A stretch of 64,000 nucleotides of DNA from Chiloscyllium plagiosum (taxonomy: Eukaryota). Positions 9,174 through 62,068 of the stretch are shown here, one piece after another. The stretch is taken from assembly GCF_004010195.1 (NCBI RefSeq), contig NC_057718.1:3750917-3814916 (forward strand). The letters are read 5' to 3'. Every line of letters starts with the position of its first letter. The first letter of the stretch is position 1. The translations under genes and the position numbers were made by a program. The notes under the pieces were generated by a model. That model was given only the letters and a program-made list of their open reading frames with translations. It searched no databases and had not been told where the DNA came from.

Positions 9174-9518
9174 CTATCACTGGTCCAGTCCTTCTCCAAT
9201 CTCCAAGCCTGGAACTTGTCACCGAGAGTCACACGGCTGAGTTACAGTGCACCATGAGGAACACCACAGTGACACACACCGATGTTCAGTGGTACCAACT
9301 GTCCCCAGAGCAAATTATGAAGCAGGTTTTAACACATACAGGAAATGGCTCCACACAACGGAGCCCAGGATTCACTGAGCGATTCCAGCCTTTCAGAGAC
9401 CCCTCCAATATCAGCTTCATTCTGACCATCACAAACGTTCAGCCCAATGACACTGGGGTCTATTACTGCTCTGTCTGGGGAAAGATCTATGGAAGTGGAA
9501 GCCAGCTCATTGTAGACA
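9174..9518 (+). CDS. Ig V-set (VJ-type) domain exon D1 of a multi-V-domain ITAM-bearing receptor
   Basis: Acceptor ttttttttaaag| and donor |gtaagt; 345 nt, phase 1/1, open frame ITGPVLLQSPSLELVTESHTAELQC...VQWYQ...FILTITNVQPNDTGVYYCSVWGKIYGSGSQLIVD with canonical Cys, Trp, DxGxYYC and a J-like YGSG strand. Confidence 0.92.
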
Positions 9519-11962: not shown

Positions 11963-12307
11963 GTGCATCTGGTCCAGTCCCTCTCCAGTCTCTGATAGTG
12001 GAACGTGTCACCGAGGGTCACACTGCCCAGTTACAGTGCACCATGAGGAATGCCACAGTGACACACACCGATGTTCGCTGGTACAGACAAGAACCAGGGA
12101 GTCATGTGACGTGGTTATCCACACGTGAAAGAAAGTATTCCACACAATGGAACACAGGGCTCACTACTCGAATCTCATTTTCCAGAGACAACTCCAGTAA
12201 CAGCTTCATTCTGACCATCACAAATGTACAGCCCAATGACACTGGGATCTATTACTGCACAGTGCAGGGAAGGATCGAAGACAGAGGAAGCCTGCTCATT
12301 GTAAACA
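11963..12307 (+). CDS. Ig V-set (VJ-type) domain exon D2
   Basis: Acceptor tttcctcaaaag| and donor |gtaagt; 345 nt, phase 1/1; ASGPVPLQSLIVERVTEGHTAQLQC...VRWYRQEPG...DTGIYYCTVQGRIEDRGSLLIVN; the G-strand diglycine motif is degenerate. Confidence 0.9.
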
Positions 12308-18343: not shown

Positions 18344-18688
18344 GTATCAATGGTCCTGTCGTTCTCCAATCTCCGTGTCTGGAACGTGTCATTGAGGGTC
18401 ACACTGCCCGGTTACAGTGCACCATGAGGAACGCTGTAGTGACACACAACGATGTTCACTGGTACCGACTGTCCGCAGACCAAATTATGGAGCGGGTTTT
18501 AACACATCCAGGAAGTGGCTCCACACAACGGAGCCCAGGGTTCACTGAGCGATTCCAGCCTTTCAGAGACGCCTCCAATATCAGCTTCATTCTGACCATC
18601 ACAAACGTCCAGCCCAATGATACTGGGGTCTATTACTGCTCAGTCTGGGGAAAGGTCTATGGAAGTGGAAGCCAACTCATTGTAGACA
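18344..18688 (+). CDS. Ig V-set (VJ-type) domain exon D3
   Basis: Acceptor tttttctttaaag| and donor |gtaagt; 345 nt, phase 1/1; close paralogue of D1; ends DTGVYYCSVWGKVYGSGSQLIVD; extra Cys in the A strand (QSPC). Confidence 0.92.
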
Positions 18689-35812: not shown

Positions 35813-36157
35813 GTTTCACTGGTCCAGTCCTTCTCCAGTCTCCGAGCCTGGAACGTGTTGCCAAGGGTCACACTGCCCGGTTACAGTGTACCATGAGAAA
35901 CGCCACAGTGACACACACTGATGTTCACTGGTACAGACTGTCCCCAAAGCAAATTATGGAACGGGTTTTAACACATCCAGGAAATGGTTCCACACAATGG
36001 AGCCCAGGTGTCACAGAGCAATTCCAGTCTTCCAGAGACTCCTCCAGTAACAGCTTCACTCTGACCATCACAAACATGCAGCTCAGTGATACTGGGGTCT
36101 ATTACTGCTCAGTCTGGGGAAGGATCTATGGGAGAGGAAGCCAAATCAATATCACCA
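35813..36157 (+). CDS. Ig V-set (VJ-type) domain exon D4
   Basis: Acceptor ttttctttaaag| and donor |gtaagt; 345 nt, phase 1/1; FTGPVLLQSPSLERVAKGHTARLQC...HWYR...DTGVYYCSVWGRIYGRGSQINIT. Confidence 0.92.
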
Positions 36158-37993: not shown

Positions 37994-38338
37994 GTGCAAA
38001 TGTCCCAGTCCTTCACCAGTCTCTGAGGCTAGAACGTGTCACCGAGGGTCACACTGCTCGGTTACAGTGCACCATAAGGAACACTGCAGTGACACGCACC
38101 AACGTTCACTGGGACCGGGAGAAACCAGGAAATAAGATGGAGTGGGTTTTAACACATGACATGAGGAACATCACACAATGGAGCCCAGGATTTACTGAGC
38201 GATTCCAGTCTTCCAGAGAGCCCTCCAATAACAGCTTCATTCTGACCATCACTAACACGCAGCCCAATGACATTGGGGTCTATTACTGTAAAGTGTGGGG
38301 AGATATCAGTGGGAATGGAACCCAACTGACTGTTACAG
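37994..38338 (+). CDS. Ig V-set (VJ-type) domain exon D5
   Basis: Acceptor ttttctcttaaag| and donor |gtaagt; 345 nt, phase 1/1; ANVPVLHQSLRLERVTEGHTARLQC...HWDREKPG...DIGVYYCKVWGDISGNGTQLTVT. Confidence 0.9.
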
Positions 38339-42336: not shown

Positions 42337-42684
42337 ATCCATTGGTTGATCCAGTCCTCATTCAGGATCCAGTGGTCAGCAAGGTAGCAGAGGGTGAAAC
42401 TGCCGAGTTCCAGTGTGCCATGTACAATGCCAGTGTGATTGACACTGATGTCCACTGGCACTACCAGCGACCTGGCAGCAGCAGGGAGTGGATGATAAGC
42501 CACTTTGTGAATGGCACCCTCACCAAGACCCAGGGTTTCCACGATCGTGTTCAGCTTTCCAGGAATGTCAGCAGGAACAGTTACACTCTGAGCCTTGTGA
42601 ATGTGACGCTCAATGATACTGCTGTGTACAGCTGCAGTGTGTGGAGCTACATCTATGGAGCAGGGAGCCAGCTCAATGTAACTG
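42337..42684 (+). CDS. Ig V-set (VJ-type) membrane-proximal domain exon D6
   Basis: Acceptor gaacag| and donor |gtaagt; 348 nt, phase 1/1; PLVDPVLIQDPVVSKVAEGETAEFQC...HWHYQRPG...DTAVYSCSVWSYIYGAGSQLNVT; most divergent domain, six N-glycosylation sequons. Confidence 0.9.
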
Positions 42685-43240
42685 GTAAGTCAATGGCAGG
42701 GAACACTGGTGTGACCAGAGAAAGGAGCACCCGTCTGCTGTGCTTCATCATGGAAGGGCAGAATGGTCATCAAGGCCAGATATTCCCAAGGCTGAATGGG
42801 GAGTGGCTTGGAGAGGAAATTGCAGGGGTGGTGTTCCCATGTAGCTGCTGCCCTTGCCCTTCTAGATGGAGGAGGTTGTGAATTTTGAAGATATTATCTG
42901 AGGATCTTTGCTGATTATCTGCAGTGTATCTTACAGATCATGTGTAGCAGAGATTCAGTGGTGGAGGGAGTGGATGTTTGTGGATGTGGTGTCAGTCAAT
43001 TGGGCTGCTTTGTCCTGGATGAAGTTAAGCTTCTTGAGTGTTGTTGGAGTTGTCCTCATCCAGGCAAAGTGGGGAATATTCCATCACATTTCTGACTTGT
43101 GCATTGTTGATAGTGGGCAAGCTTTGGGGAGTCAGAAGGGGTGGTGCCTAACCTGAGGAGCTCAAAATTAATGTTGTTGACGATCTTGAACATTTGTCAG
43201 ACTGAAGTGACTGTGTGTGTGACATTCTAATATTTTACAG

Positions 43241-43391
43241 AAGAATCTTCCCATGGTATTCCCCGGACTTCAGATCCCACTTTAATCATTGGCACCATTC
43301 TGGGCCTCGCTGTCTTAATCTGCATTGTCCTGCTCACATTTTACCTTTGGAAACGAAACCTGTGCTCATCAGTAAAGGACTCCACACAAGG
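43241..43391 (+). CDS. Stalk + transmembrane exon
   Basis: Acceptor tattttacag| and donor |gtaaat; phase 1/2; (E)ESSHGIPRTSDPTLIIGTILGLAVLICIVLLTFYLWKRNLCSSVKDSTQ(G): ~23-aa hydrophobic helix followed by a KR stop-transfer signal. Confidence 0.88.
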
Positions 43392-45285: not shown

Positions 45286-45329
45286 GAGCCCTGTTGAAGA
45301 CCAGAATGCTGTGTATGAAAATGTAAATG
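45286..45329 (+). CDS. Cytoplasmic exon 1 (SPVEDQNAVYENVN)
   Basis: Acceptor ttttatttag| and donor |gtaagc; phase 2/1 matches the TM exon; encodes a YENV tyrosine motif. Confidence 0.82.
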
Positions 45330-45829
45330 GTAAGCAAACTAATTCCATCATTACCGCAATATTTGGCTGGTATTTCTCTCTGTTCCAAATTTCCATTTTA
45401 TAGTCAGATTCCTGATGTGATTAATAAGCAAATGGTTAGAGCAGGTCAGTTGTCTGATGAACAGAATTGACCATGAAAGGTGGTGAACACACAGCCAACA
45501 GAATGAAGGTGGTAGGTTCCCCCTGGGCTTTTAGCTGCAGCTTGAACCTACCCCTCAGGACGGCAATGCTGTAAACGGCGACCCCAAAAATGCTTGGAAT
45601 TTCAGACACAGAAACAGACTCCTGTAGTCCACCAGCTAACAGATACAGACCTTTTGACATCTGTTATACCCCATTCAGAACCATTCTTTATTGAATATCT
45701 TTTGAAAATCTAAATAAAACACATTACCAGTTCTAGGTAAAAACAATGACTGCAGATGCTGGAAACCAGATTCAGGATTAGTGGTGCTGGAAGAGCACAG
45801 CCGTTCAGGCAGCATCCGAGGAGCAGTAA

Positions 45830-49122: not shown

Positions 49123-49337
49123 GATTCACACTGACAGCAGCTCCCTGACTGATTCACACTGACAGTGACTCCCTGACTGATTCACACTGACAGTGACTCC
49201 CTGACTGATTCACACTGACAGCAGCTCCCTGACTGATTCACACTGATAGTGACTCCCTGACTGATTCACACTGACAGTGACTCCCTGACTGATTCACACT
49301 GACAGCGGCTCCCTGACTGATTCACACTGATTCACAC
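49123..49337. repeat. 28-bp minisatellite, ~7.5 copies
   Basis: Unit gattcacactgacagtgactccctgact. Confidence 0.92.
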
Positions 49338-49529: not shown

Positions 49530-50312
49530 AGTCCTCTTGGCAGCATAGTGTAGTGGGGAAGCCCAGAATGGGACTCTCCAAGATGTGCAGCATGGGTTGG
49601 GAAGACCAGAATGGAATACTCTGGGAGTCACGGTGTGGGTTGGGAAGCCTGGAGCGCAACACTGTAGGGGGTGCAATGTGGGTTGGGAAGCCCAGAGTGG
49701 GACACTCTAGGGGGTGAAGTGTGGGTTGGGTAGTCTGGAGCGGGAACACTCTAGGGAGAGCAGTGTGGGTGGAGAAACCCGTAGTGGGACGCTCTAGTGG
49801 GTGCAGTTTGGGTTGGGAAGCCCAGAGCGGGACACTCTCGGGGGTGCAGTGTGGGTGGGGAAGCCTGGAACGGGACACTCTCGGGGGTACAGTGTGGATT
49901 GGGAAGCCCTGAGCAGGAAACTCTTGGAGGTGCAGTGTGGGTTGGGAATCCTGGAGGGGATACTCTAGGGGGTGCAGGGTGGGTTGGGAAGCCTGGAGTG
50001 GGACACTCTAGGGAGTGCAGGGTGGGTTGGGAAGCCTGGAGTGGGACACTTTAGGGGGTGTAGTTTGGGTTGGAAAGCCCTGAGCAAGACACTCTTGGCG
50101 GTGCAGTGTGGGTTGGGAATCCTGGAGTGGGACACTCTTGGCGGTGCAGTGTGGGTTGGGAAGCCTGGAGTGGGACTCTCTTGGCGGTGCAGTGTGGGTT
50201 GGGAAGCCTGGAGCAGGACACTCTCGGGGGTGCAGTGTGGGTTGGGAAGCCTGGAGCAGGACACTCTCAGGGGTGCAGTGTGGGTTGGGAAGCCTGGAGG
50301 GGGACACTCTTG
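49530..50312. repeat. 43-bp G-rich minisatellite, ~18 copies
   Basis: Unit ggtgcagtgtgggttgggaagcctggagyrggacactctcggg; period 43 (e.g. 50101 to 50144). Confidence 0.92.
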
Positions 50313-51520: not shown

Positions 51521-51562
51521 AATGTGAAGGATTCTCCAGCAGATTCTGACTCAACCTACATG
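51521..51562 (+). CDS. Cytoplasmic exon 3 (NVKDSPADSDSTYM), first part of the ITAM
   Basis: Strong acceptor ttccttcttattacag| and donor |gtaaat; phase 0/0. Confidence 0.8.
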
Positions 51563-52745
51563 GTAAATATCTAGTACTGCAATTAACGTTTGGCTTTACA
51601 ATATTCACCCTATTCCCAAAGAGCTCTCCTTCTGAGTTTCCATTGGTCCCTTCATTTGACTGTCATTTCTATTCACCAATCATCATCAGTGGGAATGGGC
51701 TCAGTTTCTAGCAAATAGGAATGTTCACCATATTGGATTCCCAACTCGATTACTGAGATTTTTCTGTTCTCCACTCTCTGAGCTCATTGCTTTCCAATCC
51801 CAGGGTCAGACCACCAGACACTGAGCCCCTCCTGGACCCTCCAAGTTCAAGTCTCATTCTCTGCCACTTGGCCCTACTGGCTCCCTGCTATCACTTCTTC
51901 CCTCAAAGCCAATCACTGGTCTCCTCAGTCACTGCCAACCTCAGGAGCCAACTATTGTCATCACTGCATTCAACAATTCTCAGAAGAAAAAAGTTCTTCC
52001 ATTTATATTACTCCACTCACAACCCCAGCATGGCTGAGGAGTCGTTACAATGACTGAAGTGCCTTTGAGGTGTGGTCACTGTTATCAGAAAGAGAGCAAC
52101 TGATATAAACACAGCAAGGTCACTGGAGAACAATGTTGCTTTAGAATATAAGAACATAAGAAATAAGAGCAAGTGTACAGCCGACAGCTCCTCCAAGCTG
52201 CTCCACCATTGAATACACGTCCTGGTGAATAATCTGTCCCAAATCCACTTTCCCACCTGCTCCTCATATTCCAGACATTCTCAGAGAAACCAAAGGTCTG
52301 TCCATTCCAACCTGAAATGCTGTCAGTGATGGAACATCATCAACTTTTTTGGAGAGAGAATTCCACAGATTAACAACCCTTTTAGGAAAGTGGATTCTAC
52401 CAAAAAGATCATTTGTATTCCTGCTCGGGAAGACAGGGTTTCAGTGTGACATCTCATTGAAAAGCCTGTCCTGCTGACAGTGCTGCACTGCCTCTGTACT
52501 GTACTGAGGGAGCAGCCTGGATGGTACAATCACATCTCAGGACTCCACTTTCAATCCAAACTCTCCAGTCTCAAAAACAAATGTTTTTCCACTGAGCTGA
52601 CACCAATGAATGAAGGAGGCTGTTAACATGGATCTGGTTCCAGGGATGGAAATCCCTTTTGCCCATGAGCAGTAAATATTGTTCGAATGTGAAATATTTC
52701 TAAATAAGCCATCACTGGTTTTAACATTTCTCTTTTTCCTGTTAG

Positions 52746-52787
52746 CCATTGCAGCAATGGGATCGCTCTATTTACAGTGAGCTTTAA
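52746..52787 (+). CDS. Last coding exon (PLQQWDRSIYSEL-stop), second part of the ITAM
   Basis: Acceptor tttctctttttcctgttag|; phase 0; TAA at 52785-52787; donor-like g|gtatgt immediately after the stop. Confidence 0.8.
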   Translation, partial: PLQQWDRSIYSEL

Positions 52788-61668: not shown

Positions 61669-62068
61669 GTATACAATATTCCAAATGTGACTGAACTAAA
61701 GTTCTATCCATCTGCAACATGAGCTGCAGCTTCATCTAACAGGCAGCTCTGCCCCATTTCCATCTCCCGTTGTCCTGCAGAGGGAAACACCAACACAAAC
61801 CTGGTTCAATCATTTGACACCCACACAGACATTTAAGAAAGCATTTCTTTTTAAAGGTTCACTGAGTATGTATACAATATTCCAAATGTGACTGAACTAA
61901 AGTTCTATCCAGCTGCAACATGAGCTGCAGCTTCATCTAACAGGCAGCTCTGCCCCATTCCCATCTCCCGTTGTCCTGCAGAGGGAAACACCAACACAAA
62001 CCTGGTTCAATCATTTGACACCCACACAGACATTTAAGAAAGCATTTCTTTTTAAAGGTTCACTGAGT
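61669..62068. repeat. Near-perfect tandem duplication, 201-bp period
   Basis: 61669-61867 is repeated at 61870-62068 with about two mismatches. Confidence 0.92.

Follow-up and report, generated by a model that had tools for sequence, protein, structure and literature searches.

CEACAM3 and the ITAM-bearing relatives of CEACAM1 in human, dog and Xenopus are, in the available portions of the papers describing them, single-chain receptors that carry an ITAM of their own in a tail encoded by several short exons. The first YxxL of this ITAM is typically split by a phase-0 intron, and these receptors are paired with ITIM/ITSM-bearing paralogues, the ectodomains being kept alike by recombination (PMC2110893, PMC2832619). 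The adaptors CD3, CD79, FcR-gamma and DAP12 have the ITAM consensus D/E/N-xx-YxxL/I-x7-YxxL/I and share an exon boundary within the first tyrosine module (PMC4536121, as far as its available text extends). Teleost NILT and NITR genes form clusters and encode V-domain receptors whose tails carry ITIMs or ITAMs (PMC3022915, likewise), and the Ig sigma-2 light chain of cartilaginous fish (sigma-cart, NS5) is known to include joined loci (PMC5192425 and PMC5985310, in the portions available). Several of these features recur in a receptor family of sharks, rays and, by its V domain, chimaera, one gene of which, from the bamboo shark Chiloscyllium plagiosum, is analyzed here. Most of this gene lies in the window, by which we mean the whole 64,000-nucleotide stretch of contig NC_057718.1 (hereafter C9) that was examined.

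The family nevertheless differs from each of the known systems. The CEACAM-type N domain lacks the canonical disulfide and is accompanied by IgC2 domains. The shark ectodomain, in contrast, consists of tandem disulfide-bonded VJ domains in which both Cys residues are invariant, and its best 60 matches among solved structures (PDB) are all antibody chains; it is thus not of the CEACAM type. In the CD3, CD79, FcR-gamma and DAP12 adaptors the transmembrane (TM) segment contains an acidic residue, and an ectodomain for ligand binding is small or missing, whereas the shark gene encodes seven V domains (six V-set domains in the RefSeq protein XP_043552676.1) and a TM segment without a charged residue, which excludes it from the CD3/FcR-gamma/DAP12 group. 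NILT receptors contain one or two V domains, in which additional cysteines of the CX3C type occur, and NITRs mostly a V domain with a second V or C2 domain, whereas the shark family has up to seven V-set domains. Only the two canonical cysteines are invariant in the shark V alignment, and the extra NILT cysteines (CX3C/CX6C/CX7C in the available text of PMC3022915) are absent. No bony-fish receptor was recognized among the top-scoring single domains, where 10 of 141 new matches were named. Several family members bear the automatic NCBI name SIRP. Like the shark family, SIRPs have joined VJ domains and paired ITIM/ITSM tails; their V domain is followed by C1 domains, and their genes are linked to NSFL1C. 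This identity was rejected, since the family lacks C1-set domains and the SEP-domain genes, including NSFL1C, are on C20 and C4 rather than on C9, where a neuronal nicotinic receptor alpha subunit was identified as the neighbor of the family.

The homologues fall into three TM/tail types, for which we coined the labels A, B and C: ITIM/ITSM motifs close the tails of types A and B, and type C combines a YxN motif with an ITAM. All 11 exons within the window (Table 1) have AG/GT ends, and splicing them yields a single open frame of 807 residues that contains XP_043552676.1 (C. plagiosum) letter for letter. The complete gene has seven V exons, six in the window and one upstream; the latter and the leader exon are open and have canonical splice sites. 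The RefSeq model has no signal peptide and is thus probably not fully transcript-backed. Tandem arrays with units of 28, 43 and 201 nt occupy window positions 49123-49331, 49556-50310 and 61669-62068, either in introns or downstream, and the first two are common to the activating sister copies.

Table 1. Features of the bamboo-shark receptor gene. Positions are counted within the window unless prefixed with C9.
Feature	Position	Strand	Remarks
Window	C9:3750917-3814916	+	holds most of the receptor gene
Leader exon	C9:3734924-3734977		upstream of window
Additional (seventh) V exon	from C9:3744484		upstream of window
V exon 1 in window	9174..9518	+	joined VJ-type V-set domain, phase 1/1
V exon 2	11963..12307	+	
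V exon 3	18344..18688	+	
V exon 4	35813..36157	+	
V exon 5	37994..38338	+	
V exon 6, membrane-proximal	42337..42684	+	DNA 92-97% identical to 13 other copies, any tail type
TM exon, inhibitory-type subfamily (type B)	43241..43391	+	TM segment without charged residue
Tail exon C1, type B	45286..45329	+	shares 36-38 of 45 nt with five inhibitory copies
End of collinear homology to inhibitory type-B paralogues	45466..45474	.	5' limit of the putative graft junction
Tail exon C2	48173..48246	+	74 nt, phase 1 to 0; carries YRNP; likely first tail exon of type C
Tail exon C3	51521..51562	+	42 nt, phase 0/0; ends D-S-T-Y-M, first part of ITAM
Phase-0 intron splitting first YxxL	51563..52745	+	
Tail exon C4	52746..52788	+	43 nt; remainder of ITAM, TAA at 52785-52787, donor 52789
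CAG inside exon C4	52752-52754		possible alternative acceptor
Putative last exon C5	54648..55087	+	intact G-P-K-G-T-P-E-T-stop frame; candidate AATAAA at 55082

Matches to the V exons span roughly 2.0-4.3 Mb of C9, a cluster of about 2 Mb. It contains 13 matches to the type-B TM exon, of which seven lead to an ITIM/ITSM last exon and four to ITAM exons, the remaining two being unassigned, and five copies of the type-C ITAM. Domain by domain, the V exons are 78-90% identical to those of the inhibitory protein XP_043552677.1, with six of seven domains at 78% or more, and the membrane-proximal V exon is highly similar across all tail types. With alike ectodomains joined to opposing tails, and with clustered genes that show turnover and pseudogenes, the predicted products of the cluster display the pattern of paired receptors. 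Last-ITAM exons that are orphaned or inverted, without upstream exons, occur at 3.250, 3.665, 3.133 and 2.882 Mb of C9 (L003, L009, L010 and L012), which suggests that the cluster rearranges often. At L049:4833-9368 (C9 ~2.075-2.079 Mb), a family V exon continues without interruption through roughly 1,390 more codons of N-x-S/T-rich repeat. This frame of 1511 codons could encode a V domain carried by a glycosylated stalk of great length, or else a secreted protein. In the type-C RefSeq isoforms P0055, P0056, P0059 and P0092 the TM exon is skipped in frame and the V domain is joined to the ITAM tail, so that these are predicted soluble forms. The cluster is flanked by an exon of the neuronal nicotinic receptor alpha-2/alpha-4 type (L042:4758-6050, minus strand, C9 ~4.315 Mb), which may serve as a synteny anchor.

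The first-pass annotation, made from the window alone, had proposed that a C-terminal ITAM is assembled across a phase-0 intron from two 42-nt coding exons. Exon C3 agrees with this description in length, in its phase 0/0 and in its AG/GT ends; it reads NVKDSPADSDSTYM and ends in TAC ATG. Exon C4 is preceded by AG and reads PLQQWDRSIYSEL-stop; it is 43 nt long, is followed by a donor GT and is not terminal. Splicing produces D-S-T-Y-M/P-L-x7-Y-S-E-L-stop, with the same junction as in XP_043552676.1, and the resulting YMPL-x7-YSEL conforms to the ITAM pattern YxxL/I-x6-8-YxxL/I. Lack of conservation in other sharks and rays had been named as grounds for abandoning this reading. The motif was found in 27 of the family proteins retrieved, from Chiloscyllium, Hemiscyllium, Rhincodon, Heptranchias, Mobula, Hypanus and Hemitrygon, with a spacer of seven residues in all 27; many of these are isoforms or close paralogues and do not represent independent events. 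The residue three positions before the first ITAM Tyr is Asp in the window and in the Hemiscyllium and Rhincodon orthologues and Asn in the other 24. A random donor-acceptor pair would create such an ITAM with a probability of ∼7e-5 (20/7769 decoy acceptors × 102/3997 decoy donors), which is an upper bound because real paralogous exons are among the decoy matches. The phase-0 intron splits the first YxxL identically in the five type-C genomic copies. As the annotation had pointed out, a two-exon ITAM is standard in ITAM genes (PMC4536121, PMC2110893 and PMC2832619, in their available portions); the split is their ordinary layout, and there is nothing new in it.

The unusual aspect of the gene is what the ITAM is attached to. 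The TM exon and C1 belong to type B, the inhibitory subfamily, and beyond C1 collinear homology breaks off at the same place in all six inhibitory type-B paralogues compared (the seventh, a TM fragment at C9:2.664 Mb, was left out), while all three activating copies continue past it. No alternative inhibitory last exon, or remnant of one, was found from position 43001 to 9 kb past the window. The Tyr motif of C1 is YENV, compared with YTTV, YATV or HTTV in the inhibitory paralogues; its value as a fixed mark of the switch is weakened by YETV in the whale shark and YSNV in an inhibitory Heptranchias gene. From C2 onward, the tail aligns without gaps to a type-C tail of Heptranchias. Exons C3 and C4 have the same lengths as their type-C counterparts and are identical at 26 of 42 and 31 of 43 nt, respectively. 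C2 equals the first tail exon of the Heptranchias gene in length and shares 7 of 24 residues with it (shuffle p ∼0.0014), and the similarity of its DNA with splice flanks is equalled by 2 of 3000 random stretches and none of 33 decoy exons. The match to the six other type-C proteins tested is weak (shuffle p 0.04-0.79), and we place moderate confidence in the proposed homology of C2 to the type-C first tail exon.

The distribution of the parts suggests a direction for the change. A type-B TM with an ITIM tail is found in Heptranchias, Cetorhinus, Carcharodon, Mustelus and Stegostoma, and a type-C TM with an ITAM in Heptranchias and rays. The hybrid of a type-B TM and an ITAM turned up in three genera only: Chiloscyllium, Hemiscyllium and Rhincodon (whale shark XP_048457354.1). 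It was not found outside carpet sharks in a protein collection clustered at 90%, in which activating and inhibitory models may share a cluster and from which the presence and absence underlying the graft direction were taken. Since both parent types are old and the hybrid was seen in three carpet-shark genera only, the hybrid is by parsimony the derived state, and we infer that an inhibitory gene gave rise to it. Recombination in the intron following C1, with phase 1 on both sides, would have joined the 5' part of a type-B gene to a type-C cassette; because C1 ends in the same phase 1 in which the cassette begins, the graft would have stayed in frame. In dog CEACAMs, as the accessible literature describes them, TM and tail exons move together, whereas the putative shark junction divides the tail itself, with one cytoplasmic exon on its 5' side. 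The gene is thus probably a single-chain paired receptor with an inhibitory-type TM and C1, the remaining tail exons likely being grafted from the activating subfamily, and with predicted ITAM-driven activation.

The same arrangement could have arisen without a graft, either because the 5' part of an old activating gene, as far as C1, was overwritten by gene conversion from inhibitory neighbors, or because the hybrid is ancestral. Identity to the inhibitory copies declines from 92-95% in V6 through 81-87% in the TM exon and flanks to 72-79% in C1 and flanks, as conversion might leave it, and gene conversion between paired CEACAMs has been described (PMC2832619, in its available part). Phylogenetic trees do not nest the activating copies among the inhibitory ones: the TM-plus-flank tree fails to resolve the two (31/0), as does the V6 tree, and in the C1 tree they form sister groups. 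Yet its tail exceeds that of type C by one exon, C1 and C2 being both of the first-tail-exon kind, which argues against plain conversion, since that would replace an exon rather than add one; together with the hybrid not having been found outside carpet sharks, this leads us to regard an origin without a graft as unlikely. A recent graft was rejected, because the C1 flanks are merely 72-79% identical and the hybrid is present in the whale shark. The state of the window copy raises a separate question, that of early decay into a pseudogene. The codon of its TAA is AAA in eight and ACA in one of nine other genomic copies read, so that the stop is absent from all of them, and the three other ITAM-bearing type-B copies in the genome are all damaged, from which it follows that the hybrid subfamily may be decaying. 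Against this, every reading frame is open and every splice site canonical in the leader, in the seventh V exon and in the 11 exons of the window; Hemiscyllium has a tail of 93% identity, and the stop falls directly after the last ITAM residue. Exon C5 is intact and matches the end of the epaulette-shark (Hemiscyllium) orthologue; it is untranslated here because of the TAA in C4, which cost the window copy nine C-terminal residues and left the ITAM whole. The stop also lies 1 nt before the last junction, a position at which, as a general rule, nonsense-mediated decay is not expected. That the window copy is a decaying pseudogene appears quite improbable. The derived stop, possibly a polymorphism or an assembly error, leaves a C-terminal S-E-L (window 52776-52787 together with the stop), an ending that fits the class I PDZ-binding pattern.

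Two further explanations concern the polarity of the signal. The first-pass annotation had pointed out that each ITAM half resembles an ITIM, and STYMPL and SIYSEL do match SxYxxL in the window copy; among the 27 ITAM proteins, conservation extends to the distal half alone, the pattern S/I/V/L-x-Y-xx-L/V fitting 26 distal and two proximal halves. It had also suggested that skipping of C3 might convert the receptor from activating to inhibitory. In such a splice-switch receptor, either the loss of C3 or use of the CAG 9 nt into C4 would remove the first YxxL and leave SIYSEL to act as an ITIM in a regulated inhibitory isoform. Skipping of C3 does preserve the reading frame, the distal half retains SxYxxL/I in 26 of the 27 proteins, and in Hemiscyllium XP_060686748.1 an acceptor 9 nt downstream, at a position where the window has its CAG, eliminates the first YxxL. 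This is, however, the only one of 28 models to do so, and none of the 28 annotated models with the last ITAM exon lacks the first. The phase-0 ends require no selection for skipping, because the standard layout ends every ITAM first-half exon in phase 0; moreover, a skipped form would keep both YxN sites, and seven dedicated inhibitory type-B copies are already at hand in the cluster. The proposed switch is thus unsupported, and we judge it very unlikely. Inhibition might instead occur without splicing if phosphorylation of both tyrosines led to activation and the distal SxYxxL, acting alone, to inhibition via SHP-1 or SHIP. The Ser two positions before the distal Tyr is conserved across sharks and rays in 26 of the 27 proteins, which leaves room for phosphatase binding, and DAP12 offers a precedent in binding SHIP1 through an ITIM-like ITAM half (PMC11866134, in its accessible part). 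That half is the proximal one in DAP12, however, and the shark proximal half fits in just two of 27; the distal Ser may also have been retained as a kinase or SH2 preference. We consider such dual use doubtful, and it can coexist with the explanation we prefer, that of a grafted activating receptor.

For a grafted activating receptor of this kind, established ITAM biology predicts that binding of a ligand to the V domains would cluster the receptor, upon which Src-family kinases would phosphorylate both ITAM tyrosines and the tandem SH2 domains of Syk/ZAP-70 would dock on the doubly phosphorylated motif. YxN is a Grb2/Gads motif in the available text of PMC11599192, and the two YxN sites, YENV and YRNP, would recruit these adaptors. 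Because the TM segment has no charged residue, a DAP12 or FcR-gamma partner would not be needed, and the chain would signal alone, as CEACAM3 does. Its role would be that of a CEACAM3-like activating counterpart sharing ligands with the inhibitory copies. Judged from sequence, the gene is likely a Syk-coupled activating paired receptor made by exon shuffling.

A profile of nine family V domains, searched against 1.84 billion representatives, first retrieved the family itself, with Callorhinchus among its members. Four light-chain V domains followed at 83-114 bits, and after these came other Ig and TCR V domains at 58 bits or less; the 83-114-bit light chain is Ig sigma-2 by the name of a cluster member. 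All 23 family V domains compared had sigma-2 as their best class, and all 7 sigma-2 V domains had the family as their nearest class, in a comparison that omitted 2 of 25 family and 1 of 8 sigma-2 V domains missed by the trimming pattern. Class labels such as lambda-like, kappa and TCR, in this comparison and in the trees, are our own reading of the sequences. Sigma-2 is thus the nearest V outside the family, and kinship of the two is supported by these comparisons. In trees that did not include SIRP, NCR3, CD8, NITR or named UrIg sequences, sigma-2 forms a clade of its own (99/99; 95/93) with the family outside it; two joined VJ genes of other kinds and a pair of long-branch TCR V domains fall with the family and sigma-2 on one branch (97/93) without internal resolution, and the family and sigma-2 alone make up one side of a branch in 2% of bootstrap trees. 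The trees lend no support to a direct origin of the family in an elasmobranch sigma-2 gene, for instance the joined locus on C39, as sigma-2 is monophyletic without the family. Nor do the shark genes qualify as sigma-2 light chains, which have a CL domain after VJ: the shark V exons splice to a TM exon, and the family has neither CL nor RSS, with tandem V exons, a TM segment and a signaling tail in their stead.

Several loci are relevant to this kinship. The germline-joined sigma-2 gene on C39 (L052:5927-8439, ~27.806 Mb) has a V of the same length as those of the family, and its unusually short CDR3-J is nearly identical to theirs; nearby are one more joined gene (L058) and split genes bearing RSS (L054, L055 and L057), and an exon pair with V-like and C1-like sequence adjoins the sigma-2 gene on the opposite strand (L053:6682-7409, minus strand, ~27.817 Mb). 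The two further joined VJ genes on the branch shared by sigma-2 and the family are L061 (C45 ~12.483-12.488 Mb) and L069 (C101085), one of which may be UrIg-like; L061 also includes a C exon of light-chain type, with about 40% identity to the sigma-2 C. Tentatively, and with rather less than even confidence, we suggest a chondrichthyan-wide family of innate paired receptors derived from a germline-joined sigma-2 VJ gene or a non-rearranging sister of it, co-opted before the split of sharks and chimaeras, tandemly multiplied and given swappable ITIM/ITAM cassettes, with the window gene as one inhibitory-to-activating swap kept across carpet sharks.

We did not find the cluster described among the literature matches listed, which exclude most subscription journals; the papers compared, in their available portions, were PMC12227049 (on UrIg2, whose supplements could list the genes), PMC5192425, PMC5985310, PMC3022915 and PMC6795676. 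The gene offers a mapped case of a paired receptor that probably changed polarity by phase-compatible exon shuffling within the cytoplasmic tail, so that a receptor built as a brake is predicted to deliver a go signal. The V domains of the family are closest to those of an antibody light chain that rearranges, which makes the family relevant to the question of which joined-VJ genes go back to the RAG-invaded ancestor as relics and which are derivatives from it. A large ITIM/ITAM cluster in sharks, rays and chimaera (the last by its V domain) would place single-chain, CEACAM3-like activating receptors early in the history of jawed vertebrates.
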